Below the pieces are notes generated by a model. It had not been told where the DNA came from and searched no databases. It saw only the letters and a program-made list of their open reading frames with translations. A DNA stretch of 64,000 bases from an archaeon (GTDB lineage: Archaea > Micrarchaeota > Micrarchaeia > Norongarragalinales > UBA97), in NCBI GenBank assembly GCA_020057405.1, contig JAGVFW010000003.1, positions 64,001 through 128,000 on the forward strand, written 5' to 3'. Position numbers and translations under genes: made by a program. Numbering within the stretch: the stretch's first letter is position 1; every line of letters begins with the position of its first letter. Positions 11,222 to 36,719 of the stretch are shown one piece after another.

Positions 11222-14212
11222 CTACTGGCAGGCTTCGCATTCGGGGTCGCCCACGCACACGAGGCCTGCATTCTTTGCGGCCGGGTCAAACTTGCCTTCT
11301 GCGGCCAGCTTCTTGGCTGCCATCTCAAGTGCGTTAGGAGCGCGGAACTCGGGTGCGGCTTGGCCTTGCTCGACTGCGGGCTGGACTACGGGCCTTGACA
11401 CTGCGCCTTCCATCACGGTGGTCCTGCCGGCGCCCTCCATTGCCATCATTGGCGCGCGGCGGGAGGCGGCGACGTCGACTGCAACTTGCGCAGAGGCGAG
11501 TGCCGTTGCGCCCGCGTCTTGCGCAACTGTCGCGTACTCGCGCTTTTGCGTGAAACCGTATTTCGTGTCTAGCGTTGACTTCTCGATTTGCGATGCGGCG
11601 AGGGTGCGCAGGTAGTAAGTCGTCTTCAGGCCCGCGTGCCATGCTGCAAAGTAAGTGTCGTCAAGCGCCTTGCCTGTTGCCCCGCCCATGAATATGTTGA
11701 GCGACTGGCTCTGGTCAATCCACTTGCCCCTAACGGCCGCGTGCTTGATGAGGCACTCGGACTCTACTTCAAACGCTTCCTTGTACTTTTCTTTGAGCTC
11801 TTTTGGAACGCCGGGGATGAGTTGGATGCTGCCGTCGTAGTACTTGAGTTGCTCAAGCATTTCGGTGTTCCACAGGCCCATGCCTTTTAGGTCCTCGACG
11901 AGGCCGGAGTTCACTATGGTGAACTCGCCGCTGATGTTGGCCTTCACATAGATGTTTTTGTAGATGGGCTCGATTGAGGGAAGGCAGCCGGCGATGTTGG
12001 AGATTGTCGCAGTCGGGGCGATTGCCATGGTGTTCGAGTTGCGCATGCCGTGCTTTCGCACGCTCTCGCGGACGGGAGTCCAGTCAAGCGACTCGTTTCG
12101 GTTGACTTCGACTTTCATGCCGCGCTCTTCCTCAAGCAATTGAAGGGTGTCAAGGGGGAATAGCCCCCGGTCCCACTTGCTGCCCTGATAGGATTCGTAG
12201 GTGCCGCGCTCTTTGGCAAGCTCGCTTGAAGCGAGGATGGCGTGGTAGGCGATGAATTCCATCATGTTGTCGGAAAACTCGATTGCCGCGGGCGAGTCAA
12301 AGGACAAATCCATTGCATAGAGGCTGTCTTGGAAGCCCATGATGCCTAAGCCGACTGGCCGGTGGCGCATGTTTGAGACTTTAGCCTCCGGAGTTGGGTA
12401 GTAGTTTACGTCAATGACGTTGTCCAGCATGCGCATGCCGGTCTTGGTGGTCGCCGCGAGAAGCTCGCGGTCGAGCTTGCTGCCATCCAGGTGGCGGGAG
12501 AGGTTGATTGAACCCAGGTTGCACACTGCAGTCTCTTCGGCCGAGGTGTTGAGCGTGATTTCAGTGCACAAGTTGCTGGAGTGCACCACGCCGGCGTGGT
12601 CCTGCGGCGAACGGATGTTGCACGGGTCCTTGAAAGTTACCCACGGGTGGCCGGTCTCGAAGAGGCGCGTTAGCATTTTCCGCCAGAGCTGGCGGGCTGA
12701 GAGGACTTTGTGCTTCTTGATTTGGCCGTTGCGGGCTTTTTCCTCGTAGCCTAGGTACTGGCTTTCGAACTTGCTTCCGTAAATGTGGTGCAGGTCGGGC
12801 ACTTCCTCTGGGGAAAAGAGCGTCCAGGTCTCGTCTGCGGCAACGCGCTTCATGAAGAGGTCGGGAATCCAGTTGGCCGTGTTCATGTCGTGCGTTCGGC
12901 GGCGCTCGTCGCCAGTGTTGCGGCGCAGGTCGAGGAAGTCCTCTATGTCAAGGTGCCACGTCTCGAGGTAGGCGCATGTCGCTCCGCGTCTCTTGCCGCT
13001 TCGGTTGATGGCGACAGTCACGTCGTTGGCGATTTTGAGGAATGGGATTACGCCCTGGCTCTCGACTTTGGTGCTTTTTATCCACGAGCCGGTCGCTCGG
13101 ATGTTGCTCCAGTCGTTGCCAAGCCCTCCGCTCCACTTCGAGAGCTGCGCGTTGTCGCCGAAGCTCTTGAAAATGTCGGTCAAGTCGTCGCTCACGGTGG
13201 TGAGATAACAAGAGGAGAGCTGCGGCCGCGCGGTTCCCGAGTGGAAGAGCGTCGGGGTCGAGGGGACGAAACGCATGAGAGAAATTGCGTCGTAGAACTC
13301 GAGTGCCTTTGCTTCCTTGTGCTTCTCGTTTAGGGACAGGCCCATTGCTACGCGCATCCAGAATGACTGCGGGAGTTCGGCGCGCTTGCCGGCGACGCTG
13401 AAGAAGTACCGCTCGTAGAGAGTCTGGATGCCGATGTATTGGAAGAGCGCGTCGCGGCCGGGAACTAGCCCGCCGGCCATCTTGTCGAGGTCGAAATCGA
13501 GCATGCGCTTGTCGAGTGTGCCCTCGTCGACGCCGGCGAGGATGCCTTTTGCGAACGCCGTGCGGTATGCCGCTTCCATTTCCTCGTCCTTGATTGAGCG
13601 GCCGATGACTTCCTTGTAGAGCTTTTGGAGAAATAGGTTGGCGGACAGGTAGCTATAGGCCGGGTCGCGCTCGATGAAGGAAATGCTTGAGAGGATGAGG
13701 GTCTTCTCTAGCTCGTCGGTTGAAATGCCGTCGTAGACGTTTTTCAGCGCCTCTTTTGAGACGAGCTCGACTGAAACGGCATCGCCAAGCGTGCGGCTGG
13801 AGCGGGCGATTGATGCGTTGAGCTTCATGATGTCGAAGATGACGGTCGCACCGTCGCGCTTTCGCACGCGCAGCTTGCCGAGAAGCGATTTGCGGACGTT
13901 CTGCTGCTTTTCTTCCTCGCGCTGGTCGTGGCGCTTGGCGCGGTAGAGGATGTAGCCTTTTGCGACTTCGTAGAGGCCCTTTTGGACCAAGTGTTTTTCG
14001 ACTAAATCCTGGATGTTCTCGACGTTGGGGTAAAAGTCGGTGAAGCGCCGCTGGACTTCGGTTGTTATTTCGGAAGTGATTTCGTCAACCGCGCCCGGGG
14101 GCAGGTCGGTCTGGGTTGCTGAAACTGCTTTCGAGATTGCGCTCTTGATTCGGTTAGCGTCAAAATCAACTACTTCGCCAGTTCTCCTGACGACCATCAT
14201 TCCGCCGTTCAT
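11222..14212 (-). CDS. nrdA: Ribonucleotide reductase class I alpha subunit with tandem ATP cones
   Basis: Two N-terminal ATP cones (VVRRTG, VRKRDG), PSTPTLF, QLSSCY, SNLCTEI, AIAPTATIS, LKTTYYLRT, C-terminal CEACQ; start placed at the ATG after a GGGGTGGGG RBS-like run. Confidence 0.95.
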   Translation of the reverse strand: MNGGMMVVRRTGEVVDFDANRIKSAISKAVSATQTDLPPGAVDEITSEITTEVQRRFTDFYPNVENIQDLVEKHLVQKGLYEVAKGYILYRAKRHDQREEEKQQNVRKSLLGKLRVRKRDGATVIFDIMKLNASIARSSRTLGDAVSVELVSKEALKNVYDGISTDELEKTLILSSISFIERDPAYSYLSANLFLQKLYKEVIGRSIKDEEMEAAYRTAFAKGILAGVDEGTLDKRMLDFDLDKMAGGLVPGRDALFQYIGIQTLYERYFFSVAGKRAELPQSFWMRVAMGLSLNEKHKEAKALEFYDAISLMRFVPSTPTLFHSGTARPQLSSCYLTTVSDDLTDIFKSFGDNAQLSKWSGGLGNDWSNIRATGSWIKSTKVESQGVIPFLKIANDVTVAINRSGKRRGATCAYLETWHLDIEDFLDLRRNTGDERRRTHDMNTANWIPDLFMKRVAADETWTLFSPEEVPDLHHIYGSKFESQYLGYEEKARNGQIKKHKVLSARQLWRKMLTRLFETGHPWVTFKDPCNIRSPQDHAGVVHSSNLCTEITLNTSAEETAVCNLGSINLSRHLDGSKLDRELLAATTKTGMRMLDNVIDVNYYPTPEAKVSNMRHRPVGLGIMGFQDSLYAMDLSFDSPAAIEFSDNMMEFIAYHAILASSELAKERGTYESYQGSKWDRGLFPLDTLQLLEEERGMKVEVNRNESLDWTPVRESVRKHGMRNSNTMAIAPTATISNIAGCLPSIEPIYKNIYVKANISGEFTIVNSGLVEDLKGMGLWNTEMLEQLKYYDGSIQLIPGVPKELKEKYKEAFEVESECLIKHAAVRGKWIDQSQSLNIFMGGATGKALDDTYFAAWHAGLKTTYYLRTLAASQIEKSTLDTKYGFTQKREYATVAQDAGATALASAQVAVDVAASRRAPMMAMEGAGRTTVMEGAVSRPVVQPAVEQGQAAPEFRAPNALEMAAKKLAAEGKFDPAAKNAGLVCVGDPECEACQ

Positions 14213-14240
14213 AATCCCCCACCCCAGACCTATAAACAAA

Positions 14241-14732
14241 TTACTGCGATTTTACGATTGCAATTTCCTTCTCTTCCCGCTTGAGCTCGCGCAAGGCCTT
14301 CTCAAACTCGCTCACGTCGGCAAACTCGCGGTAAACGGATGCAAAGCGGATGTAGGCGACCTTATCAAGCGCCTTTAGGTGCGCCATCACCTTTTCCCCA
14401 ACCTGGGCGCTTGCGACTTCCTCGGACTCGCTGCCAAAGCGGAGTTCGGCCTCGATTTCTGCAACAGTCTGGTCAACTTGCTCCATGCTGACTGGACGCT
14501 TGTGACAGGCCTCAACCAGGCCCTTTCGCAGCTTTAGGGGTGAAAACGTCTCGCGCCGGCCGTCTTTTTTGATGACGACTAAGTCGGGCGCCTCGACACG
14601 CTCGTAAGTGGTAAAACGCTTGCCGCAAGCCTCGTTTAGGCACTCCCGTCTGCGGCGGTTTGTTACCTCTCCCTCGGCCTCTCTTTTGTCGAGAACCCGC
14701 GTTTCAACGTGCAAACAAAACGGACATTTCAT
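14241..14732 (-). CDS. nrdR: Transcriptional repressor NrdR
   Basis: MKCPFC...RRRRECLNEACGKRFTTYE zinc ribbon plus ATP cone ending AYIRFASVYREF. Confidence 0.95.
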   Translation of the reverse strand: MKCPFCLHVETRVLDKREAEGEVTNRRRRECLNEACGKRFTTYERVEAPDLVVIKKDGRRETFSPLKLRKGLVEACHKRPVSMEQVDQTVAEIEAELRFGSESEEVASAQVGEKVMAHLKALDKVAYIRFASVYREFADVSEFEKALRELKREEKEIAIVKSQ

Positions 14733-14775
14733 GTAAATTCCCCACCAACATGGCACACGCCAAACAAGTGCCCCA

Positions 14776-14823
14776 AAACCACCAGTTGTGCCATACAACT
14801 TAATGAAACACAAGCTTTTGTGG
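14776..14823. promoter_or_regulatory. Tandem NrdR-box-like sites upstream of nrdR-nrdAB
   Basis: ACACAAGCTTTTGTGG (14808-14823, about 12/16 to acaCwAtATaTwGtgt) and weaker AAACCACCAGTTGTGC (14776-14791), 32 bp apart. Confidence 0.5.
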
Positions 14824-15013
14824 TTTTGCGTCATTCTCAACGCTATTCTAGTTTAAATAAGTTTCGGCTTTCTTCAAGAATATCCCGCCGTTTTAGGGAA
14901 AAACGCGTAGTGCTTTGGTGCGTACGAGAAGTTTGGCGGTTAGGCGCCGATGCTCACTCGGACAAGGTACGGGCGCAAGCAATGGTAAAGTTTATTAATG
15001 GTATTTTTTATAA

Positions 15014-15250
15014 ATGGTAGGTGGTTTTGTGGAGAATGTGAGTGTTGACAAGTCGGGCCGCTTCGTTATTCCAAAGAAGGTGCGAGCCGAGTTTGACACC
15101 AACGTGTTTTCAGTAGAGGTGGAGAAAGACGCCATTGTCTTGCGGCCGAAGAAGGGCCTTAGGGGACTTTTTGGCACGTTTCCGGACCTCGACATGAAGG
15201 AATTCGAGAAATGGAAGAGGGAGGAAGTAGAACGTGAGAATTCTTCTTGA
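15014..15250 (+). CDS. vapB: AbrB/MazE-type antitoxin
   Basis: VSVDKSGRFVIPKKVR...IVLRP swapped-hairpin motif; overlaps the PIN gene. Confidence 0.85.
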   Translation: MVGGFVENVSVDKSGRFVIPKKVRAEFDTNVFSVEVEKDAIVLRPKKGLRGLFGTFPDLDMKEFEKWKREEVERENSS

Positions 15251-15608
15251 CGCTTGGGCCATCCTTGAACTCATCAAGGGCAGCGACAAGGGCGCAAAAG
15301 TGGAAGAAATCGTGCGCGATAGCACGCTTGCCTGCACCACTTCCCTAAATCTCTACGAAGCGAAATACAAGCTTACCGGCCGGTACGGCGAGGCCAGAAT
15401 CGACAAAATGCTCGATGAAGTCAGGGCAACAACCCAAATCCTCCCAATCACCGAAGAAGCCGCGCTTGCGGCAGCGGAAGTAAAGCTGCAGCAAAAGCAG
15501 CTAAGCGCAGTTGACTGCAACGCTTATGCTGTCGCCCGGCTCCACAAACTAGAATTCGTTACAGGCGACAAGGGTTTTACCGGACTCGAAGGCGTCGTGC
15601 TGGTCTAA
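15234..15608 (+). CDS. vapC: PIN-domain toxin
   Basis: ILLDAWA, NLYE, LSAVD and VTGDKGF acidic PIN motifs. Confidence 0.9.
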   Translation: MRILLDAWAILELIKGSDKGAKVEEIVRDSTLACTTSLNLYEAKYKLTGRYGEARIDKMLDEVRATTQILPITEEAALAAAEVKLQQKQLSAVDCNAYAVARLHKLEFVTGDKGFTGLEGVVLV

Positions 15609-15620
15609 GTGCAGGGGGAG
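15605..15620 (+). repeat. att-like core copy A (CTAAGTGCAGGGGGAG)
   Basis: Exact 16-mer containing the vapC stop codon. Confidence 0.9.
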
Positions 15621-15710
15621 CGACTCTAGCTTCTTACTAGAGTCTGAAGCACCGGGCAGTTAACCCCACAAAACGTTGTTTTTTATGCATGCCAAACAAT
15701 CGCGCCCCTC

Positions 15711-15755
15711 TAGGCGTAGTCACTTAGAACGATTAATTTAAATAGGCGTAGTCAC
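15711..15755 (+). promoter_or_regulatory. 13-bp direct repeat TAGGCGTAGTCAC flanking the TATA box of the Fic gene
   Basis: Copies at 15711-15723 and 15743-15755 around TTTAAATA. Confidence 0.55.
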
Positions 15756-15766
15756 CTATTACTACT

Positions 15767-16705
15767 ATGCACGTTGAACTCCGCAAGGCTGGCGAGGGTC
15801 GTAAGTTCTACTTGGCACACTCATACCGGAGAGGCAAGAAAATAGTCAAGCTCCGCATCTACCTTGGCGCGAACCTTTCCCCCGATGAAATAGTGGAGAA
15901 AAAACACCTTGCCGAAAGCACGCTTCGCTATCGTGTCGATGCCAGCGCTGCCATGAGCGACCCGTTTGAAACCGCGCTTTCCAAGGGTGAGCTCGAGGAG
16001 CTTAAGACGCTTGAGGCCAAGGGAGAGCTCGCCATCAAGCACTTGTCCGAGGAGGACTGGCGCAACTTTACCGAAGCGTTCACTTACGACACGAATGCCA
16101 TCGAAGGCTCCACCATACTCCGGGAAGAAGTAGGGGACATCCTCGAGCGCGGGAAGTGGCCGGACAAGCCGAAGGGAGACATATCCGAAACGTATGGCGT
16201 GGCGAAAGCCATCGAACACGTAAGAAAAACCAAGGAGCACATCTCGCTGCCGCTGCTTTTAGAATTGCACCGCATAGTTTTCCTGAACTCTAAGCCGTAC
16301 GCGGGAAAGTTCAGGGCGCGCGGAGTGGAAGTAGTCGTGGCGGACGCATACGGGAATATCCTGCATCGCGGCGCCCCTTCGACGCAAGTGCGAAAGCTCC
16401 TAAAGCGGCTGGTGGAATGGTACGGGAAGAACAAAAAGCGCTACCCGCCACTAGTCCTCGCCGCCGTAGTGCACAACCAGTTCGAGAACATCCACCCGTT
16501 TCAGGACGGCAACGGGCGGGTCGGCAGGCTCTTGCTCAATAATATCCTGCTCAAACACGGGCTGCCGCCGCTCAACATCGAACTGCGCAACAGGCACGAA
16601 TACTACGCGGCGTTGCAGGCGTACGAGCACAAGCATGACATCCGGCCCACAATCCAGCTCATGCTCAAGGAATACCGTGCTCTCAAGAAACTCCTCAAGA
16701 GGTGA
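15767..16705 (+). CDS. Fic family protein with N-terminal basic beta-strand domain
   Basis: HPFQDGNGRVGR and TNAIEGS; N-terminus RKFYLAHSYRRGKKIVKLRIYLG. Confidence 0.92.
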   Translation: MHVELRKAGEGRKFYLAHSYRRGKKIVKLRIYLGANLSPDEIVEKKHLAESTLRYRVDASAAMSDPFETALSKGELEELKTLEAKGELAIKHLSEEDWRNFTEAFTYDTNAIEGSTILREEVGDILERGKWPDKPKGDISETYGVAKAIEHVRKTKEHISLPLLLELHRIVFLNSKPYAGKFRARGVEVVVADAYGNILHRGAPSTQVRKLLKRLVEWYGKNKKRYPPLVLAAVVHNQFENIHPFQDGNGRVGRLLLNNILLKHGLPPLNIELRNRHEYYAALQAYEHKHDIRPTIQLMLKEYRALKKLLKR

Positions 16706-16731
16706 CTACACCGCACAATTTTGTAGTCACC
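16701..16731. repeat. 10-bp inverted repeat overlapping the Fic stop codon (terminator or operator)
   Basis: GGTGACTACA-N11-TGTAGTCACC, sharing GTAGTCAC with the promoter repeats. Confidence 0.55.
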
Positions 16732-16740
16732 CAAAACAGC

Positions 16741-16805
16741 GTGCTTCTAGCCCTAGTCTAAGTGCAGGGGGAGTAAGCTTAGACCTGGACTAAGTGCATA
16801 CCGAA
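16741..16805 (+). repeat. att-like site B: core at 16758-16773 with palindromic arms on both sides
   Basis: gtgcttctagccctagt-CTAAGTGCAGGGGGAG-taagcttagacctggactaagtgcataccgaa. Confidence 0.9.
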
Positions 16806-16855
16806 ACGAAAGCACGATAATGCCGAATGTGGCAAAGCCAAATAAAAAGTGTCTC
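16798..16855 (+). repeat. 58-bp direct repeat, copy 1
   Basis: ataccgaaacgaaagcac...atgccgaatgtggcaaag...aataaaaagtgtctc, repeated at 17921-17978 with few mismatches. Confidence 0.9.
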
Positions 16856-16874
16856 GAGTTTGAGCGGACTTGGG

Positions 16875-17816
16875 CTATGCGCGCTTGTCGTGCCCGTTTT
16901 CGGCTTGTTCTTCGGGTTTCAGGATCGTGTACTGCTCAAGCAATTGCTGGGAAAGAAAGCTCGCGAAAGGCTTTTGGTTTCCCTTGTCCGCTTCTTCGAT
17001 CGCGTTGTAGTATTGTTCCTTGTTTCTCGTTTCAATGATTGCCGGCGGGAATCGATTCCGCATGAGGATCCAGTTCATCAACAGCCTTGACGTGCGACCG
17101 TTGCCATCGGTGAAGGGATGGATTTGAACGAACCCATTGTGCAACCATGATGCCAATTCTACAGGATGAAGCGCGCGCTTATTTTTTTGATATTCCTTGA
17201 AGAGTTCGCCCATCAACCGCGGTACGTCCTTTGCTGCCGGAGGCTTCCAGTCCGAACCGCCGATTCCGACTTCACTGTCGCGGTAATCGCCTTGAATCCT
17301 GCACGTCGTGTTTTTCGTGATCTCAAACTGTATTTTGCACGCGAATTCCTTGTTCACCTGTCCCTTGTACGACTTGACGAATTCCCACGCATCCTTGCCG
17401 TTCAACACCTCGATGACGTCGTTCGTCTTTACGCCTTGCGGCGCGATTCCTTCGGAAAGAATGAGCGCGGTTTGCCGCAAGGTGAGCGGATTGCCTTCGA
17501 TCGCGTTCGTGTTGTACGTAAAGCGCACGAGAAAATCGCTCGGCACCATGCCCTCCGGAAAACCCTTGAACGCGACTACGGCTGAATGCAAGTCCTCGAG
17601 CCGATCTTCCGCTTCCTGCGACAGCCACTTCGCCTCGTAAGGCTTCGGCGCCTTTCGTTCAAGCTCTGAAAAATACTTTTGCAACTCATCGTGGCCTGGC
17701 ACTTTCCTCCCCAAAAACACCCGAACTTTGCTAACCTTGGTGGGAGAAAGGCGCACGCTCTTGACGAGGTAGAAATAGTCGTGCTTCCCGTGCCTCTGCT
17801 TCTCGATAAACGCCAT
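16875..17816 (-). CDS. Fic family protein with N-terminal basic beta-strand domain
   Basis: HPFTDGNGRTSR and TNAIEGN; N-terminus YFYLVKSVRLSPTKVSKVRVFLG. Confidence 0.92.
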   Translation of the reverse strand: MAFIEKQRHGKHDYFYLVKSVRLSPTKVSKVRVFLGRKVPGHDELQKYFSELERKAPKPYEAKWLSQEAEDRLEDLHSAVVAFKGFPEGMVPSDFLVRFTYNTNAIEGNPLTLRQTALILSEGIAPQGVKTNDVIEVLNGKDAWEFVKSYKGQVNKEFACKIQFEITKNTTCRIQGDYRDSEVGIGGSDWKPPAAKDVPRLMGELFKEYQKNKRALHPVELASWLHNGFVQIHPFTDGNGRTSRLLMNWILMRNRFPPAIIETRNKEQYYNAIEEADKGNQKPFASFLSQQLLEQYTILKPEEQAENGHDKRA

Positions 17817-17920
17817 AATATGGCTACATCTTCAAACTATTTAAATATTGTGGTCATAATGCCTACTTTTACGCGCCTAATATAAATTGTAGCCATACGG
17901 ATTAATCTCGAGGGGAATTT

Positions 17921-17978
17921 ATACCGAAACGAAAGCACAGAAATGCCGAATGTGGCAAAGTCGAATAAAAAGTGTCTC
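17921..17978 (+). repeat. 58-bp direct repeat, copy 2
   Basis: Near-identical to 16798-16855. Confidence 0.9.
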
Positions 17979-17987
17979 TGCTTTTGG

Positions 17988-18731
17988 TTAAATCAAGTGA
18001 AGACCCGAAGCCAAAGCAACTAACCCCGAAAGCAAGACCAAAACCAATGAAATTTTCCTAAATAATTCGTCATCGACCTTGTGGACGATTGCCATGCCTG
18101 CAAGAGAACCTACGACCATTGCCGGAAAAAGCATAATCGTATAATTAATCACCTCGTTCGTAAGCAGGCCGTTCACAAAATAGAACGGAATCGTGAGAAG
18201 AAAGAGAACTGAAAAATAGGCGACTAAATCGGCGCGAAAATCATCTTTTTTTGTCCCTTGGTTTGCTAGAAAGAGCACTACTGGCGGACCGCTCATGGTG
18301 GTGCTGCCGTTAAGGACTCCACTTGCAAAGCCCGTTATCGCAAATCCCGTCAGCTTATTCTTTATTTCACGCCTGAAGCCAACGATCAACGCCAGGGCGG
18401 TTAAGGCGACTATTGTTCCTGCGAAAATTTTTAGCGTTGCAACGTCCAAATACAAGAGAATCCAAGTTCCTATCGGAATGCCCGCCAACCCGGCAACCAG
18501 CAATGGAAGTATGCGTTTGAAGCTGACGTTACGCCAGACCTGCACTAACACGATGAAATTTATCGCAGTGTTAAGGAGGAGAACTATTGGTATTGCCGTC
18601 TTTGGAGACAAGAAAAGTACGAGGAGTGGAACCGATACAAGGGCAAAACCAAATCCCGTCAAACCATAAGTCAAAGCAGCCAGGAGGATTATTGCAAACG
18701 CAAAAACAATCGGGATAGAAACTTCAAACAA
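17988..18731 (-). CDS. TauE/SafE family (sulfite exporter-like) membrane protein
   Basis: GLTGFGFALVSVPLL and SGVLNGSTTMSGPPVVLFL; about 8 TM helices. Confidence 0.85.
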   Translation of the reverse strand: MFEVSIPIVFAFAIILLAALTYGLTGFGFALVSVPLLVLFLSPKTAIPIVLLLNTAINFIVLVQVWRNVSFKRILPLLVAGLAGIPIGTWILLYLDVATLKIFAGTIVALTALALIVGFRREIKNKLTGFAITGFASGVLNGSTTMSGPPVVLFLANQGTKKDDFRADLVAYFSVLFLLTIPFYFVNGLLTNEVINYTIMLFPAMVVGSLAGMAIVHKVDDELFRKISLVLVLLSGLVALASGLHLI

Positions 18732-18870
18732 GGTAATTCAACTCTGCCAATTTACATTATCGCTCAGTTTGTTTAAATAGTGCCTAATGCCCTTTCGTTG
18801 ATCACCTAAAAAATGCTGAATTAATTAACGGCCAAATTCTACATTTCTGTGTAACATGAGGGCGAAAAAC

Positions 18871-18924
18871 TTCGGTATACCTTTAGACCAGGTCTAAGTG
18901 CAGGGGGAGTGCTTTGAACCCACG
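18871..18924 (+). repeat. att-like site C: perfect palindrome TTAGACCAGGTCTAA, core at 18894-18909, then a tRNA T-arm-like remnant
   Basis: Minus strand reads cgtgggttcaaagcactccccctgcac. Confidence 0.88.
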
Positions 18925-18932
18925 GAATAGGG

Positions 18933-21704
18933 CTACCCGCGGGGGAAGGGGAAGTCGGCCATGAGGCCTACGGGAGTGGTGTTGAAGTTGGTGAAGCCGG
19001 TTGCCAGGACTGCCCCGTTTTGGACGAAGTAGTCGCCTGCGGCGGGATTCCTGAACTGGGGGTCGGCGGTGACTGAATTGACGTCAAAGCCGTATTGCGA
19101 CTGCCATTGGGCGAGAGGGATTTTTGGCGTTCCTACTTGAATCGTATACCTCCCATCAGGCCGGTAAAACGAGTTGTAATCCGAAGCGCTTACTTTGTCG
19201 GATTGCCAGTCTGCAAACTTGAACATGGTGGGATCGAGCGCGTTCGAGGTGGAGGCATAGAAAATATTGCGAGTAATGTTCAGGTGGTGGTTGGGCATGC
19301 CCAGATACGCTTGGAAGAAAGCAAGCTCTCGCGGCTCGTCGGTTGCTACAATGTTGTTGGTGAGCGTGTTGTAATCGCCTTTGATTAAGAAAGTATAGGG
19401 ATTGGTGCGGATGTTGTAAACGAGGTTGTTGCTGACCATATTGTATCCGGACCCATCGTCAAGGTACATGCCAACGGCGAATGGATTGTTGACTTGAGTG
19501 GTCGCGGTAATGTCGTGAATGACATTGTTGGTGATGAGATTGTCCTTGCCGGAACCCCACAAATAGATTCCGCCGCCGTCATGCGTGTCCCGCATCACGT
19601 CCGAAACGTCGTTAAAGGCGATGGTGCCGTTTCTGGCGTAGACGTAATCGCGGTAGTTTTCCTGAGTTGCGTCCGGAATGAAAAGTTTAGTGTAGTTGAG
19701 AGTAAAGCCGAGGTAGAGGATTCCAGCGTAATTTCCGCGGTGGATTTTGTTGAAGGACACGTTGGTCGAGCTGATGCGCGCGAGAAGCATTCCCGCGGCC
19801 CTCGAATAGCGCCGGCCGAAGTCGTAAAAGCGGTTGTTGACAATGCGGTTAAAGCCACTCACGTCGCCATTGCCCGGATAAGGGCCGCCCAATTTGATTG
19901 CATCAGCGCCAAGCTCGTTTAGGTAATTGCCGTAAATGTCAAGGCCAGTAACGTAGAAGCCGCCCGTAATTCCATGAGTCAGTTGCTTGAATTCATTGAA
20001 GCGCACGCGGATGTTGTCGGCGTAGGCCACATGCAATCCCGTGGGCGTGCTTAGCGGCCCGTTGGAATTGGCTGTCTTAAAGCCGTTGCCCATTTCGAGA
20101 GTCAGGCCGCGCAGTTCGATGTTCGACGTTTTTACCGAGGGCGAAGAGCCGGAGACCTGGATTATCCGCTCGATTGTGGGCGCCAGGATTTCCTGCGAGT
20201 CAATCGGCGCGTTTCGCGGCCAGTAGTAAGTCAGGCCGGTCGTCTCGTCGTAGAAAAATTCTCCGGGAGAGTCAAGAAAGTCGAGTGAATTGATGAGGGC
20301 AAACCGGTTGTTGAGTCTTATGACGTAGCTCGTGTTGGCTGACAGGTTGATTGTGCGGGTGGAGAAGTTGACGTAAGTGATGGGAGTTATGTCAACGGCC
20401 CAGTCGTAAACGTAAGAGCCGCTTCCGCCGGGGAAGATGTAGGCCTTGGCACTGGAGTAGGAAAACGTGTCGGGAAGCGCGCCGGACGGGTAGACGAAGC
20501 TCGTGAAGTTGTTGTCGCCATAGCCGGCAACTTTCAGGTAACCTGAATTGGGCGTGCGCGCGGGCACCGCCTCGACGCCATTTTCGTAAAGCGAGTAAAT
20601 ATTGGGGCCTATGTTTGCAACGTAGATGTTGCCTGAATAAAGCGTCCAGCCGGTCGCGGCCTTGGATGCAATCAACCTTGGCTTCTCGCCGTAGTAGTTG
20701 CGCCAAATAACGCGATAGCCGTTCTTTCCGGAATCCGGGGGCTGGAGCAAAAGCCCGCTCGTAAGGTAGTACTTCCCACCTCGAAGAAAGACAACCGCAT
20801 TAGAGGTCATTCCGGAAGTGATGTTGGTGCGGATTGTAGTCTGGGCTTTTGAGAGTGTTAGGAATGGTGCGGTTAGTGTGCCGGGGTTGTTGTCATTGCC
20901 GTTTGTTGCAACGTAGAAGAAGACTGTCGAGTCGCAGGCGTCGCCCACGCCATTCTCGTCCGCATCCCATTGGTTGGCGTTCGCCACTGACGGACAATTG
21001 TCAACTGAATCGAGCACGCCGTCGTCGTCTGAGTCGGGCGGGGGCGTCGGAGTCGGCGTGGGAGTGGGAACGCAGGAGGGGCACGGTGTTGGCGTGGGTG
21101 TAGGCGAGCCGCTTGGCGTGGGGCTCGGCGTTGGGCTGCTGTTTGGAGTTGGCGTTGGGCTTCCTTGCGGGCCCGGAGTTGGGGTCGGCGATGATGTTGG
21201 CCGGGGGGTGACTATAGGGAGAGTAGAGTTCACGCAGTGCTCGGCAGGCGCGATTGATATTCCTTCGCAGCTGGCGACACACACGTTAAAGTAAGTCCTG
21301 CCGTCAGAGCCGCAGACCGGCGTGTAAACGCTTGGGCAAGCGCATGGGTCGGGCGTAGGTGTTGCCGTCGGCACCGGAATCGGCTGGACTGAAGGCATTG
21401 GCGTGGGCGTTGGGCTGGGCGTCACGATTGGCGTTGAAAATAAGTCGAGTCCCCGCAAGCCGAACAGGTTTTTGCCTAGCTCGCGAATTTTGGTGACGAT
21501 TTTCATCTGCGCATCCACCATCTGCTGCGCAACAGAAACAATAGGATGATACTCCGATTGCGTAGGCGGGGAAGAAACGATGAAGAAAGAACCTGCGAGT
21601 GTAATGTAAGCCAAAACCGCGATTAGAAAAACGATTGTAAAGGCCGACGCCGCACTTTCGCCTAACCTACCGCGCAGCGCCTCCAGCTCTTCCCAAAAAT
21701 CCAC
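18933..21704 (-). CDS. Paralogous surface protein (TM, PT, Kazal, TSP3, beta-helix)
   Basis: N-terminal part is nearly collinear with the 6127-9069 product; LDSPGEFFYD, DGGGIY, GMYLDDGS. Confidence 0.8.
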   Translation of the reverse strand: MDFWEELEALRGRLGESAASAFTIVFLIAVLAYITLAGSFFIVSSPPTQSEYHPIVSVAQQMVDAQMKIVTKIRELGKNLFGLRGLDLFSTPIVTPSPTPTPMPSVQPIPVPTATPTPDPCACPSVYTPVCGSDGRTYFNVCVASCEGISIAPAEHCVNSTLPIVTPRPTSSPTPTPGPQGSPTPTPNSSPTPSPTPSGSPTPTPTPCPSCVPTPTPTPTPPPDSDDDGVLDSVDNCPSVANANQWDADENGVGDACDSTVFFYVATNGNDNNPGTLTAPFLTLSKAQTTIRTNITSGMTSNAVVFLRGGKYYLTSGLLLQPPDSGKNGYRVIWRNYYGEKPRLIASKAATGWTLYSGNIYVANIGPNIYSLYENGVEAVPARTPNSGYLKVAGYGDNNFTSFVYPSGALPDTFSYSSAKAYIFPGGSGSYVYDWAVDITPITYVNFSTRTINLSANTSYVIRLNNRFALINSLDFLDSPGEFFYDETTGLTYYWPRNAPIDSQEILAPTIERIIQVSGSSPSVKTSNIELRGLTLEMGNGFKTANSNGPLSTPTGLHVAYADNIRVRFNEFKQLTHGITGGFYVTGLDIYGNYLNELGADAIKLGGPYPGNGDVSGFNRIVNNRFYDFGRRYSRAAGMLLARISSTNVSFNKIHRGNYAGILYLGFTLNYTKLFIPDATQENYRDYVYARNGTIAFNDVSDVMRDTHDGGGIYLWGSGKDNLITNNVIHDITATTQVNNPFAVGMYLDDGSGYNMVSNNLVYNIRTNPYTFLIKGDYNTLTNNIVATDEPRELAFFQAYLGMPNHHLNITRNIFYASTSNALDPTMFKFADWQSDKVSASDYNSFYRPDGRYTIQVGTPKIPLAQWQSQYGFDVNSVTADPQFRNPAAGDYFVQNGAVLATGFTNFNTTPVGLMADFPFPRG

Positions 21705-21797
21705 GCTAGGCTAACGCCAAGGGAATTTAAGAACAGAACGGCTCTCTGCTGTCGAAACACTAATGGAAAAGAAAAAAAGCGCATAGCTAACGGTGGA

Positions 21798-21867
21798 ACT
21801 CGAAGGCATCGTGCTGGTCTAAGTGCAGGGGGAGTACGCTGAGACGTCGTCTAGAAGCGGACTTTGC
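21798..21867 (+). repeat. att-like site D (core 21819-21834), preceded by a copy of the vapC 3' end
   Basis: 21798-21834 matches 15584-15620 at 36/37; right arm tgagacgtcgtctagaagcggactttgc. Confidence 0.9.
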
Positions 21868-21915
21868 GAGACACAATTGATTCGTTGATTAATATAGTCC
21901 TAAAATCAATTATTC

Positions 21916-22707
21916 TTGACAGAGGGAATCAACTTGATTTTGCGTCCAAGAACTTTAAAGTCAATGGCTGAACAACTAGCCCAATTGCCCCCTCAAAGAC
22001 GGAAAGTAGTGGTTTTAGTCGGTAGACACCTAAATGAAGGGTCAGTAAACTTAGCAAACAGGTGTCATGAATCTTGGGGAAAAAAAGGCGCGGTCACCAT
22101 CCAACTTCCAGTGGACTGGACTCCAGAAGGTTTTTGGCATAGTGCGATGCAACGAAATCTCACTGCTGAAGAAGTAGAGAATGAAGCGAAAGCTATTCCT
22201 TCAGATGAGGCTATTTTAGACTTTCTCTTCAAAAGAGGATTTCGAATTCCGGTTCTAAATATCCACGGCGCTGGACACGAGGCGCGCGATATAACTAATT
22301 CTTCTGCGGAAACTGCCGAGAATAGGGAAAAAATCGAGACTGAACGGACTCCGACAACAAGCATAACCACAGGTAATAAAACGAGAATTTTCGAGCACAA
22401 ACTCATTCGCCATCACTATGGTAATATTGAACATCCTAACGAAATTTTGATAGAAATATATTATGGCGGATCTAAAAGAAATACTAAATCTCTAGAATAT
22501 GCGGTAGGTTTGGATCCGCATTCGAGACTCGCAGTTAACAATTCTCCGAGTTATATTGCAAAAAGATACTTGCGCGGCATCGTTATCAACCGCGGTTCAC
22601 TTGAGCGCCTTCACAAGGACGTGACTCCGAAAATAGAAGAACTGATTGAACACCTATCAAAAACCGGTCTAAAAGCAAGGCTTGGAAAAAGAGACTATAT
22701 TCGCTGA
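21916..22707 (+). CDS. Hypothetical protein, possible M14-like zinc site (start may be ATG 21964)
   Basis: Long AT-rich ORF filling the D-E cassette; VVVLVGRHLNE ... VLNIHG. Confidence 0.65.
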   Translation: MTEGINLILRPRTLKSMAEQLAQLPPQRRKVVVLVGRHLNEGSVNLANRCHESWGKKGAVTIQLPVDWTPEGFWHSAMQRNLTAEEVENEAKAIPSDEAILDFLFKRGFRIPVLNIHGAGHEARDITNSSAETAENREKIETERTPTTSITTGNKTRIFEHKLIRHHYGNIEHPNEILIEIYYGGSKRNTKSLEYAVGLDPHSRLAVNNSPSYIAKRYLRGIVINRGSLERLHKDVTPKIEELIEHLSKTGLKARLGKRDYIR

Positions 22708-22742
22708 AATTGTGTCTCTGGATATGAAAACAAGTCGTTGGC

Positions 22743-22813
22743 GACAAGGTCTGCTTCTAGACCTGGACTAAGTGCAGGGGGAGTGCGCTTAGACGCGGTC
22801 TAGAAGTGGACTT
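22743..22813 (+). repeat. att-like site E (core 22768-22783), the most symmetric copy
   Basis: gcttctagacctggactaagtgca-GGGGGAG-tgcgcttagacgcggtctagaagt: 24-bp imperfect inverted arms around a 7-bp spacer. Confidence 0.92.
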
Positions 22814-22816
22814 TTC

Positions 22817-22834
22817 GAGACACAATTGTGTCTC
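22817..22834. repeat. Perfect 18-bp palindrome GAGACACAATTGTGTCTC
   Basis: Seen directly; its halves recur at 21868 and 22708. Confidence 0.85.
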
Positions 22835-22868
22835 AATCTATAAGTAGTCTTGTTTCACAAGTGATAGT

Positions 22869-23204
22869 ATGCGAATATCCTTTCGGGCTTTTGAACACCG
22901 TTATCCTGGCACCTATGGGACGAGCATGCTTTCTGCCAACGAACTGAGAGAAGCGAAATCGCTGAGGACATTCATAACTCGCAAAAAGTACGAAGATGCT
23001 ACTCGAGGAATTCCAAAAGGAAATCCAAAAATCGTTCGCGTCTTGGGTGAGATTTTTATCATCGACGGCCATCATCGAAGTAGGTTTGCCGTAGATCGCG
23101 GGGAAGGAATCACGGTAGAGCATTTCGAAACTGACTCTAAAGCACTCAAATTTATTTTGGATAAAAAGGCAAAAGCCAAGATTGGAGGAGTGGAAATTCG
23201 TTGA
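22869..23204 (+). CDS. Small ParB/Srx N-terminal-like protein
   Basis: PKIVRV...IFIIDGHHRSRFA motif. Confidence 0.65.
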   Translation: MRISFRAFEHRYPGTYGTSMLSANELREAKSLRTFITRKKYEDATRGIPKGNPKIVRVLGEIFIIDGHHRSRFAVDRGEGITVEHFETDSKALKFILDKKAKAKIGGVEIR

Positions 23205-23221
23205 TGAACGAAAAACGAGGC

Positions 23222-23284
23222 AGTACACTTCTAGATGTTGTCTAAGTGCAGGGGGAGCGATTTGAACTCTTGAACGCCGTTGAG
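23222..23284 (+). repeat. att-like site F (core 23242-23257), followed by a degenerate tRNA-Leu 3' half on the minus strand
   Basis: Minus strand reads ctcaacggcgttcaagagttcaaatcgctccccctgca. Confidence 0.88.
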
Positions 23285-23285
23285 T

Positions 23286-24206
23286 TTAGCGCTTTTCGCC
23301 CTGCCAAAGCGAGACGAATTCCTTGTAGTTTCGGGCAACCATCTCGACTGCTTCCTCGCGCGAGTGCTTGCCGTCCTTCAGGCCCGCCAGGGCGTCCCAG
23401 AAGATGGTGCGGCCGACTGCAAAACCGATGATACCGGGAATTTTGGCGCCAACGGAAAGCCATTCCTTGACTTTTTCCTTGCTTTCGCCGCGGCCGAGCG
23501 TGATGACGCCGGCTTTCCTGCCGTTTGCCTGCGCTTGGGCGACTATTGCACGCGCGTCCTTTGGCGAATCAACGCCCTCCATCTTCCAGACGTCGGGCTC
23601 GACGCCTGCGGCCTGGATGTCGGCCATTGCGCGGACCATGAGCTTGGGGCGAAGTTGGGAATCGTAAGCGGCCTTGTCCCCATTGAGTTTCGCCAACTGG
23701 TCGGCGGTCGCGGGGACGAGGAGCTCGAAGAGGTAACCCCGATTGGTGCGCTCGAGGTATTCGCCGAGGGTCTTGAGGCGGGCGAGCTGGCGCTTGTTCA
23801 TCACGGCATCAGCTTCGTGGTTGTAGCGCACGAGCACTTTTGCGAATGCGGGTGCAAAGTCTTCTAGGTGGTGGCCGAATGCCCCGCCGTACTCGAAGTC
23901 AAACTCGTCCTGACCGCTTTTCTCAACGGGCATGGCGAAGTTTACGCCATTTGCTCTCGCGTCGACCGCGATTGCCGCGCCGAACTGCTCGTCAACGAGA
24001 ATGCCTGCGATGGGCTTTGGCACGCCATCGGCAATCGCCTTTGAGAAGCCCTCGTAGACGACTTTCTTGAAGTCGCAAATGCGGGAAGTCTCTGCCACGG
24101 TAGGCGGGCGTCCCTTGATGCCGAATAGCTTCTCCATGAACGACCCGCGGTGGTCAAACGCGAGAATGAGCAGCTGCCGCTTAGTAAAGTCCTTCTCCAA
24201 TGCCAT
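23286..24206 (-). CDS. DUF2090 / IolC C-terminal-like, LacD-type class I aldolase fold
   Basis: LAFDHRGS, GILVDEQFG, PVEKSGQ, KVLVRY, LFELL, PDVWKMEG, GFAVGRTIF. Confidence 0.85.
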   Translation of the reverse strand: MALEKDFTKRQLLILAFDHRGSFMEKLFGIKGRPPTVAETSRICDFKKVVYEGFSKAIADGVPKPIAGILVDEQFGAAIAVDARANGVNFAMPVEKSGQDEFDFEYGGAFGHHLEDFAPAFAKVLVRYNHEADAVMNKRQLARLKTLGEYLERTNRGYLFELLVPATADQLAKLNGDKAAYDSQLRPKLMVRAMADIQAAGVEPDVWKMEGVDSPKDARAIVAQAQANGRKAGVITLGRGESKEKVKEWLSVGAKIPGIIGFAVGRTIFWDALAGLKDGKHSREEAVEMVARNYKEFVSLWQGEKR

Positions 24207-30842: not shown

Positions 30843-33800
30843 AGACTAAAATACAGGCAATTGTAGTAATCGCGGCAATGTTGCTGATTTTGACAGCTGG
30901 AGGCATCAACGCGGCCACGCCAACCCCAACCGGCCAGCCTACGGTCACCCCGACAGCCTGCGAATTGTGCCAAATCGAAGGCGGCCCCTGCCCTACAGAC
31001 TGTCCGGGCGGATCGCCGGGCCCAAGCCCCACGCCAATTGACTGCTTATTGTGCGAGACCATCCAAGGCAACGTAGCGTTGCCCTATTACTGTTACTTGA
31101 CCCCACCAGACGGGTGTGGATTGCCGACTCCAACGCCTTCAGGCACGCCCACCCCGACGCCGCTTGGCACGCCCACTCCAACTCCGGGCTGGTGCGGTGA
31201 CGGCATTTGCCAAGGCGGTGGCGGAGGGTTTGGCTCGCCTACGCCCATCGGGGTGATTGACGTCATTACCGCAAAGGGCGGATTCATGTCATTTCTTCCA
31301 GTCAAGGACATTGGCCTAGGCAACGGCGGGAGCGGCGGTTACTCTGAAACGTGTTCCTCGTGTGCAGTTGACTGCGGCGTGTGCCCGACGCCTTCACCAA
31401 CGCCATACGGCTTCTGCGGCGACGGCATTTGCGGAGCAACTGAAAACTGCATGCAGTGCACCCGCGACTGCGGTGCGTGCCCGACTCCCTCGCCCACTCC
31501 AACAACCGTTCCGTGCAACTGCTTCTGCGTTCCAAACCCGACTCCAACGCCTGGGCCGCAGAGCAACGCCTGCGCTGTTCGACCGCAGCTCGTTGACTTC
31601 ACCGCCTGCAAGCTTCAGTTGGGCGACATTTCTGGCCCCTCGCCATCATCCTGCCAGTCTGACCTGACTGTTCGCGTCTGCGACGCCACCGGTTTGCCGC
31701 TTGGCGGCAAGGTATCTGTTTTTGATGGCGTGTCGGACTTAAACTCCGGCTTGCGCATTCAAACGCTTACGCGAAACCGCGGGCGCACTTCGGCAACTGC
31801 AAAAGGAGGCACGCTGGCGCTTGACATTACAACCGGCACGGACGAACTGGTGCCGCCACTTGTCGTAAAGGCGTGGTGCGGCGACGGCAAGGCATTCGAG
31901 TGGCGCACGCCAGAGTTTAACCGCGGAGTCTCGGTCGGCATTGAGCCGAGCGACTTGCTGTTATACGCTTCAAGCGACGGCTCGACTTACTTTGCGACCA
32001 AGGACGGCAAGACAATCAGTTTTGCGGCTGCTGCAGTGCCCGCAAACTTGGCTGCCAAGAAACCGGCGTCACTGGGAGACTTGTCTGTTGAGATTGCCGA
32101 CCCGTTCCTCGTTGGCAACGGCGATGCGCTAAAGGAGCCGGGCATTGGCGTGCCTTTTGTCGCGCGTGTGCTGCTGGTTAACCGCGGCACCGAGTCATTG
32201 GGCCCCGCGTTTAGCCTGCACGCCTACGTTGACGGGGTGCAAGTGTATTCCGCCACAATCGAGCGCACTCTGGCGCCCCGCGAGTCTTTTGCTTATGAAA
32301 TTCCACTCACGTCCAACAAGTTCGGACAGCAGCAGGTTGCGGTCGAGGCCGGCGACCTGCAGGGAACTACGGGCTGCGGGTTTAGCGAAGTTACGCTTTA
32401 CAACAATAAGCTTACTGAAACAGTCACCGTCGCCACCGACCCCGTGGCGGATACTGAAGGAAGGCCGATTGTCAAGTGCGATGACGGCACCGTAGTCGGC
32501 AGCTGCAGTAGCCAAACGCCGGACAAGTATTGTGCCCTCGCGCCACTCCTGACGCCCCAGGGAAGCACGCCCGGCTGGGTGTCCGCCGACGGCAAGGCGC
32601 CTGGCACGGTCAATGACGATTATTCTGGCACTTCGTGCGCGGGCTTGAGTTCTCCGACAACTCAAAAGTGCTTCGGCGGCGCGAAAAACGCGCTTTCGGG
32701 CACCGCAACCTACTCGGGCCTCGTGCGCGTGTTTAATGGCGAGGACATCACATTTACCATCGAGCCCGACGACGACGGCGTGCTTTACTTTGACGGCGAG
32801 GCTTTCTTGGCCGCCCACTATGAAGTGCAGGGAGACGGAACGCCTAGGAGAAAGACGGCAACTGCAACGCGTTTTGTCACCGCCGGCCTCCACTCGATCC
32901 AATTTAGCACAACTAACATCGAACCCCCTGATGTCGGCGGATTCATTTACTGGAAGGGCGAGTCGTTCCCGGAGCAGGAAATTTCGCCCGCGGTCTTTCT
33001 AGAGTGCAATGGCGGGACCGGCAGCGACTGCCATGATGTCCCGAGGCTCTTGCCAATGCCGCCTAACGGCTGCACTTGGGTTGAAAAATCAATATGCCCC
33101 GCGGGCAGTTACTCTTGGAACTGGGAGCTTCAGTGCCGCCGCGAGACTTGCGCGCGCGTTGGCGGCTCTTTAATCGGCTGCGAGTGCAGCGACGGGACTC
33201 CCGCAAGCGAGTGCAGCCTTGACTCGCGTGGACTCATTTGCGCATTTACTGGTTCTAACAACAACCTAGTCGGCGGCGGTAGCGTCACCCTCAAGCAGGA
33301 TGACCGCTGCGCTGTTGGCGGCGGGACCTGCACCGAAGGCTGGACTGACAAGACGGGCACGCAAACGGGCCTTATTGAATTTACTTACCACGAGCCCTAC
33401 CTCGACACTTACGGCCAGGGCACGATAACACACACTGGCACTTCGCCTCGCCTCGAGTTTGATGGGAAAGCAAGCGATTACAGCGCAACGGGCTATCTTA
33501 AGGTTATCCAGCCGCGCGTGGTCGCGTTCAAGTTGTCTTCGCAGGAGCACGCGAAGTTCTTCATCAACGGCAGGCTTGTCTTTGAGAAGAAGCAATGCCG
33601 AGGCGCGCTAAACTGCCCGCCGGCTGTTGTCGTCTCCCGCTTCCTTGACGCTAATGTCTACCGCGTGAATGTTGATGTTGTTGATGAAGCTTCAAGCGGC
33701 GGCAATGGCCACGTTGGAGTCAAGCTCGAATGGCAGGCCAAGCCGCCCGAAGGCACCTGCACTTCGGGCCTGCCGTTTGAACCAATCGGCCCGTCAAACT

Positions 33801-34237: not shown

Positions 34238-34249
34238 GAGATGTAAAAA

Positions 34250-35476: not shown

Positions 35477-35492
35477 ACGAAGTGAAGAGCAA

Positions 35493-35618
35493 ATGGACCG
35501 GAAGAATGCGGGCTATGTTATCCTCCTAGTCGGCCTCGTGGCCGCGGTTGGAGTTCCGGACTACAGCATCATTGGGGCGGCTTTGATGGTCGCGGGCCTG
35601 CTTTTGGCTTTTAGTTAG
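35493..35618 (+). CDS. 41-aa two-helix membrane peptide (below the ORF-track cutoff)
   Basis: MDRKNAGYVILLVGLVAAVGVPDYSIIGAALMVAGLLLAFS*; fills the intergenic gap. Confidence 0.55.
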   Translation: MDRKNAGYVILLVGLVAAVGVPDYSIIGAALMVAGLLLAFS

Positions 35619-36559: not shown

Positions 36560-36590
36560 AAATTGCTTAGCGCGAGGGTGTTAAAAAAAG

Positions 36591-36719
36591 CGCCGGGAGG
36601 GAGATTCGAACTCCCGCACCCGTGAGGGAACTGGTTGGCCCGTGTTGAAAGCCGAAGGCCCATAAGTAGGGCGTTAGGCTATTTCGAGACCAGCGCGATA
36701 ACCACTCTGCCATCCCGGC
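36591..36719 (-). tRNA. tRNA-Ser(CGA) with canonical-position intron (about 46 nt)
   Basis: GCCGGGA/TCCCGGC acceptor stem, CTGGT-CT-CGA-A[intron]A-ACCAG, long variable arm, GGGAG-TTCGAAT-CTCCC. Confidence 0.92.

Follow-up and report, generated by a model that had tools for sequence, protein, structure and literature searches.

Six identical repeats with a tRNA-Leu 3'-end core probably mark a tandem array of integrase-less mini-elements in a Micrarchaeota genome

What are the six identical 16-nt repeats that punctuate a run of genes between nrdR and a DUF2090 gene in an archaeon of the order Norongarragalinales (Ca. Micrarchaeota), and how did the genes between them arrive? DPANN archaea have tiny genomes and, to our knowledge, little is known about their gene gain. 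We analyzed a stretch of 64,000 nucleotides from one such genome (the window; positions 64001-128000 of contig C6 of G000, an assembly of 1.22 Mb in 17 contigs with a completeness of ~91%). A scan of the window located the 16-mer CTAAGTGCAGGGGGAG exactly at 15605, 16758, 18894, 21819, 22768 and 23242 (cores A to F), always on the + strand and with zero extra matches when ≤2 mismatches were allowed; 0.03 copies are expected by chance, and 0 of 100 shuffles gave six. The core-to-core spacings are 1153, 2136, 2925, 949 and 474 bp. Each of the six copies falls between open reading frames (ORFs); copy A overlaps the vapC stop codon and the sense codon preceding it. GC content is 0.41-0.47 at 17750-18750 and 21500-23250 vs about 0.55-0.60 in the flanks. 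An earlier interpretation made from the letters alone (hereafter the sequence-only reading) had described an integron-like cassette array here, and the positions, strand, intervals, gene-boundary placement and AT-rich cassettes that it gave are all reproduced. What it proposed as an undescribed capture system is, in our view and with a probability of roughly two in three, a tandem series of integrase-less mini-elements of 0.47-2.9 kb, resembling the cis-mobilizable elements (CIMEs) of bacteria and inserted by a tyrosine integrase whose attachment (att) core is the 3' end of tRNA-Leu.

The nature of the core emerges from its copies elsewhere in G000. The 16-mer resolves into a 5-nt arm end, CTAAG, which belongs to the flank, and an 11-nt core, TGCAGGGGGAG, which is the reverse complement of the acceptor 3' strand of tRNA-Leu plus three T-stem bases. 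One 16-mer copy on contig C16, taken as its reverse complement, overlaps a tRNA gene (59045-59171) at the 3' end; ARAGORN calls this gene tRNA-Val(CAC) with an intron. We read it as a class-II tRNA-Leu(CAA) with a 41-nt intron at 37/38, since the variable arm is long, the anticodon loop reads CTCAAGG and the counterparts in loci L060, L071 and L072 are called in this way. The 11-mer also ends tRNA-Leu(TAG) at 147075-147159 of contig C11, and at both places the core is identical to the 3' acceptor end of the tRNA gene. G000 holds 18 exact 11-mers vs 0 for the reversed control, the maximum among the 68 genomes of the order; the others have 0-9 copies (reversed control 0-3), and in the 61 of 68 genomes that contain it the 11-mer is mostly a tRNA-Leu end. 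The full 16-mer occurs 11 times in G000, each copy perfect though the arms around them differ. The 3' ends of tRNA genes are classical targets of tyrosine integrases. Since the core is the 3' end of tRNA-Leu genes, the type of site is not new, and the suggestion of an undescribed capture system with a novel site falls away.

Nor is the motif confined to the single capture site of the sequence-only reading: it marks at least six places in the genome, both tRNA-Leu genes included. Besides the six 11-mers in the window, the tRNA-Leu(TAG) gene on C11 has three plus a degenerate one, C16 has one at tRNA-Leu(CAA) and another four at a distance of 4.6-6.4 kb, and C1 has two between uvrA and vapBC/uvrC; a single one on C2 is probably a chance match inside a gene. 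A solo core at 90744-90759 of C11, between a 308-aa ORF and a DUF359 gene, is flanked on either side by short stubs resembling the class-1 arms described below and is without a cassette. Cassette arrays are found at both tRNA-Leu genes, the one on C11 comprising three cassettes of 636-798 bp with ArsR plus DsrE, GNAT and two small ORFs. In total, about 13 core-bounded units are found at six places in the 1.2-Mb genome. As a separate observation on C16, two co-oriented cores (54543-59175, locus L010) bracket tRNA-Leu(CAA) together with 4.6 kb of upstream DNA encoding an epimerase, a CARF-like protein and unassigned ORFs, and the next core-bounded unit (53501-54543) encodes a bacterial-type PolyA_pol/CCA-like nucleotidyltransferase. 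The contig ends 200 bp past the tRNA, within a class-1 arm, which suggests a repeat-induced assembly break.

The sequences flanking the cores fall into at least two arm classes. The class-1 left arm spans ~60-110 nt and ends with CTTCTAGACC(A/T)GG(T/A)CTAAG before the core, and the class-1 right arm extends ~65-75 nt past the core. This right arm contains GAGACACAATTGTGTCTC, a palindrome of 18 bp, and its CTATAAGT box lies ~25-30 nt ahead of the first ORF. In class 2, a stem of 7-8 bp closing a 7-nt loop flanks the core on either side and is followed each time by CTGAAG; a third type of left arm goes with another integrase subclade. Classes 1 and 2 both recur across several families of the order, and the class-2 right-arm type of junction A is found again at 147957 and 148646 of C11 and in relatives from other families. 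Between two congeners, the class-1 left arm with its core is 99% identical over 107 nt, vs 74% in the adjoining chromosome, and the cargo differs. Some junctions are hybrids: at C16 54543 the left arm is of class 2 and the right arm of class 1, and at A the vapC-end flank meets a class-2 right arm. Such pairing of different arm types places the exchange point inside the 11-mer. Core doublets 13-32 nt apart (16758-16798 in the window, 52729-52771 on C16 and 5290-5313 in L073) may be scars of excision or abortive recombination. In the window, D-E and E-F carry class-1 arms (the left arm at F being diverged) and A-B a class-2 right arm, and none of these units encodes an integrase. The conserved arms and hybrid junctions thus support the idea, already put forward in the sequence-only reading, that the repeats are putative recombination-site cores and the intervals non-autonomous cassettes. 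The class-1 and class-2 arm patterns gave 0 matches in viral contigs, leaving a viral origin unsupported.

The locus is made up as follows, in window coordinates.

14241-14840, - strand: nrdR (Pfam ATP-cone and Zn_ribbon_NrdR), left chromosomal flank, kept beside the locus in congener G001
15014-15250, + strand: vapB (Pfam MazE_antitoxin, E 1.1e-4)
15234-15608, + strand: vapC/PIN (Pfam PIN, E 1.6e-15), its 3' end at 15582-15604 forming the left flank of core A
15605-15620, + strand: core A, CTAAG followed by the 11-nt tRNA-Leu-derived core at 15610-15620
15621-15649, + strand: class-2 right arm at A, an 8-bp stem and 7-nt loop, then CTGAAG
15767-16705, + strand: Fic, 312 aa, cargo of A-B (Pfam Fic, E 4.1e-20; PADLOC SoFic, E 5.4e-33)
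16741-16798, + strand: junction B, with a short class-1-like left arm (16741-16757) and core B (16758-16773)
16790-16798, + strand: partial second core of junction B, within a truncated right arm
16875-17816, - strand: second Fic, cargo of B-C (Pfam)
17988-18731, - strand: TauE/SafE permease, cargo of B-C (Pfam), AT-rich (GC 0.42-0.47)
18880-18925, + strand: junction C, with a short class-1-like left arm (18880-18893) and core C (18894-18909)
18910-18925, + strand: T-arm-like tRNA-Leu remnant of junction C, with no Rfam tRNA match and no ARAGORN tRNA
18933-21704, - strand: secreted-type protein of 923 aa in interval C-D (Pfam Kazal, TSP3 and beta-helix)
21795-21898, + strand: junction D, with a 24-nt copy of the vapC 3' end (21795-21818) and core D (21819-21834)
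21835-21898, + strand: class-1 right arm of junction D, which holds a GAGACACAAT box at 21868; its AT-rich TATA-like box precedes the ORF start by ~24 nt
21916-22707, + strand: 263-aa protein, cargo of D-E, no Pfam or PADLOC family
22707-22845, + strand: junction E, a complete class-1 attP-like site (left arm 22707-22767, core E 22768-22783, right arm 22784-22845)
22817-22834 and 22838-22845, + strand: right-arm boxes of junction E, the 18-bp palindrome GAGACACAATTGTGTCTC and CTATAAGT
22869-23204, + strand: 111-aa ORF with an IIDGHHR stretch, cargo of E-F, starting about 25-30 nt after a TATA-like box
23227-23285, + strand: junction F, with a diverged class-1 left arm (23227-23241) and core F (23242-23257)
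23258-23285, + strand: 28-nt remnant of junction F, resembling the T-arm and variable-arm region of tRNA-Leu(TAG) and abutting the DUF2090 stop codon
23286-24206, - strand: DUF2090 gene (Pfam), right chromosomal flank, kept in 5 of the family's 6 other genomes

Two sub-arrays, A-B-C and D-E-F, can be recognized as the sequence-only reading had seen: A and D share a 22-24-nt flank from the 3' end of vapC, and C and F each precede a T-arm-like remnant, which is a real tRNA-Leu fragment. Interval C-D lies between them, with the tRNA-like right flank on one side and the vapC-end-like left flank on the other, and its 923-aa protein differs from the protein at the matching locus of G001. The cassette contents proposed earlier were recovered with Pfam for Fic, Fic with TauE, the beta-helix gene and the orphan, but not for the supposed ParB-like gene, as the 111-aa ORF has a sub-threshold match to ParBc_2 only (E 0.1, 13.2 bits). 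Among the order's other 67 genomes, no homologue of this ORF was found. The two Fic proteins of the window are 30% identical to each other. The 263-aa protein belongs to a patchy multi-copy family with homologues in 17 of the 68 genomes of the order, 28-49% identical and with ≤9 copies per genome. The family reaches up to 9 copies in G026, a genome with one 11-mer core, so it also spreads by other means. With regard to the target, ARAGORN found no tRNA gene in the window and Rfam gave 0 matches at E ≤ 1 in 14500-24000; the window array has 16-28-nt remnants after C and F in place of an intact tRNA gene, whereas the C11 and C16 arrays of G000 sit at intact tRNA-Leu genes.

A search for the 16-mer across the genome and its relatives, which the sequence-only reading had called for, extended the picture beyond G000: allowing ≤1 mismatch, it was found in 12 of 41 related genomes. 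Co-oriented arrays ending at tRNA-Leu are present in G021 (C3) and G045 (C6), with three cassettes each of 689-1101 bp, and in G033 (C31), with two cassettes; a similar array in G053 (C39) is without tRNA-Leu in the stretch examined. Among the cargo of these relatives are Fic, PIN and ParE, together with a methyltransferase and an asparaginase fragment. Co-oriented direct repeats of the core bound each unit, both between the six cores of the window and in the tRNA-Leu arrays, and the 35 core-to-core intervals of ≤5 kb from 18 loci and G000 have a median of 891 bp, with 26 of them at 474-1650 bp. The same architecture recurs in independently assembled metagenome-assembled genomes (MAGs) and in metagenome contigs. 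At the locus itself, nrdR and DUF2090 are 3.4 kb apart in the congener G001 vs 8.4 kb in G000, with flanking proteins 75-79% identical, and between them G001 has a DsbA-like protein and an ArsR regulator and no core. These other genes, the shorter gap and the missing core show that the nrdR-DUF2090 region is variable. As a side observation, loci L034 (G005, C1) and L076 (G059, C53), from two MAGs assigned to separate families, have 5,847 bp in common at 99.98% identity, with tRNA-Leu(TAG) and one cassette in the shared part; a contig that is common to both MAGs or wrongly binned, or else a very recent transfer, could account for this.

Which enzyme could act on such cores? Tyrosine recombinases (PF00589) of about 370-410 aa were found in 22 of the 41 genomes, with 0-5 matches each, a patchy distribution as expected for mobile integrases. 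We examined 20 of the 42 matches in relatives and built a tree of those 20 with the integrase of G000. At 8 of the 20 loci, a core or a tRNA-Leu gene lies within about 1 kb of the integrase gene, and seven of these eight integrases fall in one 14-member clade (support of 90 in the Shimodaira-Hasegawa-like approximate likelihood-ratio test, SH-aLRT), whose subclades match arm classes 1, 2 and 3. The arrangement is best seen in G017: on C10, tRNA-Leu(TAA) and a class-1 left arm precede a 3,309-bp unit in which the integrase is accompanied by a Dam methylase and a PD-(D/E)XK protein, and the far core carries a class-1 right arm; on C14, a core-bounded class-2 unit of 3,286 bp at tRNA-Leu carries an integrase and a few cargo genes. 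In two metagenome contigs, a class-1 right arm is likewise followed by an integrase and restriction-modification-type genes. The residues R, K, HxxR, W and Y are invariant in all six aligned integrases, and the closest solved relatives are archaeal XerA-type (E 2.8e-15), with IntI4 matched weakly (2.3e-7 over 74 residues). A tyrosine recombinase with the R-K-H-R-[H/W]-Y residues, of roughly 370-400 aa, is encoded in the same-armed units of relatives next to tRNA-Leu and not in the window; the sequence-only reading had suggested looking for recombinases beside other copies of the repeat.

An integrase of the cognate clade was found neither in the 17 contigs of G000 nor in any of its core-bounded units, which agrees with the earlier proposal that the recombinase acts in trans. 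Its claim that the window lacks integrase, transposase and cas genes stands for tyrosine integrases, serine recombinases and Cas1, while transposases were not searched for; in the G000 assembly as a whole, no serine recombinase or Cas1 was found. The sole tyrosine integrase of G000, a 382-aa protein on C17, belongs to a distant clade. It lies in a 5.3-kb element at tRNA-Phe(GAA) (33577-38934, equivalent to L013 5577-10935), bounded by a 21-bp direct repeat, CAAATCACCCCTGCGGCATTC. With 31-32% identity to the tRNA-Leu clade and an att site of its own at tRNA-Phe, this protein is in our view an unlikely driver of the arrays.

Taken together, these observations can be accommodated by a simple scheme. 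Each unit is bounded by direct repeats of TGCAGGGGGAG, with a class-1 or class-2 right arm after its left-hand core and a left arm before its right-hand core; on a circle, the two joined arms and the core would form attP. An incoming circle could then recombine with any resident core, such that the right arm of the newcomer meets the old left flank and its left arm the old right flank, and arrays would accrete. Under this placement rule, the window would have had two insertion points, each originally of the form vapC 3' end/core/tRNA-Leu 3' fragment, and both sub-arrays would derive from such a site by two insertions each, so that one point now holds A-B and B-C and the other D-E and E-F, with C-D between them. 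Class-1 cassettes may bring their own promoter, predicted from two elements ahead of the ORF, an operator-like palindromic box and, at ~25-30 nt, a TATA-like box; in the autonomous relatives, the class-1 right arm precedes the integrase gene. For present-day movement, an integrase would have to come in trans, from an element missing in the assembly or from a newcomer that carries one.

Several points weigh against this reading. The window array is not at a tRNA gene, and the reading does not account for a core with a tRNA fragment between nrdR and DUF2090. B, C and F have short or diverged arms, and interval C-D is without class-1 or class-2 arms; some units may therefore be fossils. None of the cassettes was found in identical form at a second place, the Fic of the G021 tRNA-Leu array being 32% identical to that of the window. 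In a comparison of the kind that the sequence-only reading had proposed, the G001 locus differs in gene content, but it represents a replacement and not a clean empty site, its intergenic DNA being unalignable by eye. One core-adjacent integrase, L050, lies outside the main clade, in a neighboring group. With G000 ~91% complete, the absence of a cognate integrase applies to the assembly only. Recombination at the core is deduced from the sequence, and the predicted class-1 promoter comes from inspection of the letters.

The strongest of the rival explanations, which we nevertheless consider unlikely, is that the array is a decayed residue of a few larger elements that lost their integrases by deletion, as in classical CIME formation, so that the small units were never mobile and are now fixed. 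Both integrase loss and tandem integration are described for archaeal elements (PMC8371274) and bacterial CIMEs (PMC5704250), in the portions of these papers that concern us here, and the truncated or diverged arms at B, C and F, the lack of a cognate integrase in G000 and the failure to find the same cassette at two sites would all fit decay. However, decay does not readily explain why 11 of 11 16-mers are perfect despite differing arms, why junction E keeps both arms complete, or why at least four other genomes likewise have fully armed units of ~0.5-1.2 kb at tRNA-Leu; moreover, congener arms are 99% identical around different cargo, and hybrid arm combinations require core exchange. A regulatory or structural origin of the repeat (a dispersed promoter, terminator, small RNA or repetitive extragenic palindromic (REP)-like element), or an assembly or duplication artefact, is very unlikely and the least probable of the explanations that we weighed. 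Its appeal lies in the placement of the repeats at gene boundaries, the hairpin of the class-2 arm and the promoter-like box of the class-1 arm, yet the core is identical to a tRNA-Leu 3' end, many genomes have it directly beside tRNA-Leu genes, and it matches no Rfam family. Furthermore, terminator-like sites are not enriched in a promoter/terminator scan using a bacterial consensus on this archaeal host (8 vs 11.4 expected), the flanks are unique to each copy, and the architecture recurs in independently assembled MAGs and metagenome contigs.

We also doubt strongly that the array is an integron analogue, in which a fixed platform with a dedicated integrase captures promoterless cassettes via folded single-stranded attC-like hairpins. 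Junction E does recall attC, with a two-stem hairpin interrupted by internal loops and a single-stranded folding energy of -15.8 kcal/mol (z -4.8); toxin-antitoxin, GNAT and Fic cargo resembles cassette content, and arrays without an integrase resemble the clusters of attC sites lacking integron-integrases (CALINs) as described in portions of PMC9668308. But E is the only one of the six window junctions with a strong hairpin, A, B, C, D and F folding no better than shuffles (z -0.76 to +1.03), and a RYYYAAC...GTTRRRY pair within 150 nt on either strand is present at 0 of 6 sites, in line with the absence of the attC signature noted from the letters. An IntI-type integrase with attI and a cassette promoter (Pc) was not found beside the array, and the window has no tyrosine recombinase. 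The core is a tRNA end, the integrases of relatives lie inside cassette-like units and not beside attI, their best solved relatives are XerA-type rather than IntI4, and class-1 cassettes seem to carry their own promoter. Membership of the integrons thus fails for want of an attC signature, of folding at more than 1 of 6 junctions and of IntI/attI.

How do mini-elements of this kind relate to known systems? The comparison draws on portions of the cited sources and holds for those portions. Among archaeal elements that target tRNA genes, the pT26-2-related plasmids of Methanococcales use classical, non-suicidal tyrosine integrases with tRNA-Ser or tRNA-Leu as the target, and tandem integration, integrase loss and secondary sites have been described for archaeal integrative elements (PMC8371274). 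The Micrarchaeota units share with them an att core that is a tRNA segment, direct-repeat bounds and, in relatives, an intact internal integrase. They differ in being far smaller (median 0.9 kb, autonomous units ~3.3 kb) and, in those examined, in having no replication or virion genes; many are integrase-less yet two-armed, arrays are found apart from intact tRNA genes as well, and they occur in a DPANN lineage. Streptococcal CIMEs are decayed integrative and conjugative elements (ICEs) or integrative and mobilizable elements (IMEs) of many kilobases that are moved by conjugation; they have lost their integration genes, have kept attL and attR, and accrete in tandem at tRNA or other att sites (PMC5704250). 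The window units similarly keep both att sites without integration genes, and newcomers would enter resident att sites; unlike CIMEs, they are single-gene cassettes with no transfer machinery known, and their arms are strongly conserved around varied cargo.

A further parallel is offered by the tycheposons of Prochlorococcus, tyrosine-recombinase elements at tRNA genes whose successive integrations are separated by partial tRNAs, in islands with scattered partial tRNAs, degraded remnants and cargo-carrying forms (bioRxiv 10.1101/2020.12.28.424599). The window array likewise has tRNA-site elements and partial-tRNA remnants; however, tycheposons are bacterial and each described element has an integrase, whereas window-type units are mostly integrase-less and much smaller. 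With integrons and CALINs, archaeal ones included, the arrays share co-oriented and mostly single-gene cassettes, toxin-antitoxin and acetyltransferase cargo, and an integrase that is often not nearby (PMC9668308). They differ from them in having no attC signature or general hairpin, a tRNA-end core, an integrase that travels on a cassette-like unit and an apparent promoter of their own. The words 'Micrarchaeota' and 'tRNA' appear nowhere in the main text of that paper, and its supplementary tables could list such genomes. Literature searches aimed at such arrays in Micrarchaeota found no description of them. Hence tRNA-targeted integration, tandem accretion and integrase loss are already known, and what differs here is the tiny single-gene units, the two-armed integrase-less sites, the arrays away from tRNA genes and the DPANN host.

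With comparable arrays at tRNA-Leu in other families of the order as well, the findings point to a simple recurrent mechanism, namely a tRNA-Leu-specific integrase and very small satellite cassettes that carry Fic, PIN/ParE toxin-antitoxin, GNAT, methyltransferase and restriction-modification genes. We tentatively raise a broader possibility, in which Norongarragalinales possess a distributed integron-like exchange system where promoter-bearing single-gene cassettes of ~0.5-1.2 kb with a two-armed attP are moved among tRNA-Leu and secondary sites by a cassette-borne integrase, and which would be a main route by which these reduced genomes gain defence, toxin-antitoxin and accessory genes. In practical terms, the 11-nt core with class-1 or class-2 arms can serve as a marker of accessory genes and of assembly break points in Micrarchaeota MAGs.

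Two minor observations concern the surroundings. At 11222-14840 of the window, the gene for a bacterial-type NrdR repressor adjoins that for a class I/II-type ribonucleotide reductase large subunit, in an archaeon. Of the tRNA genes called in G000 by ARAGORN in intron mode, ~23 of 40 have predicted introns, some of them very long and some probably mis-called (868 nt, tRNA-Cys).

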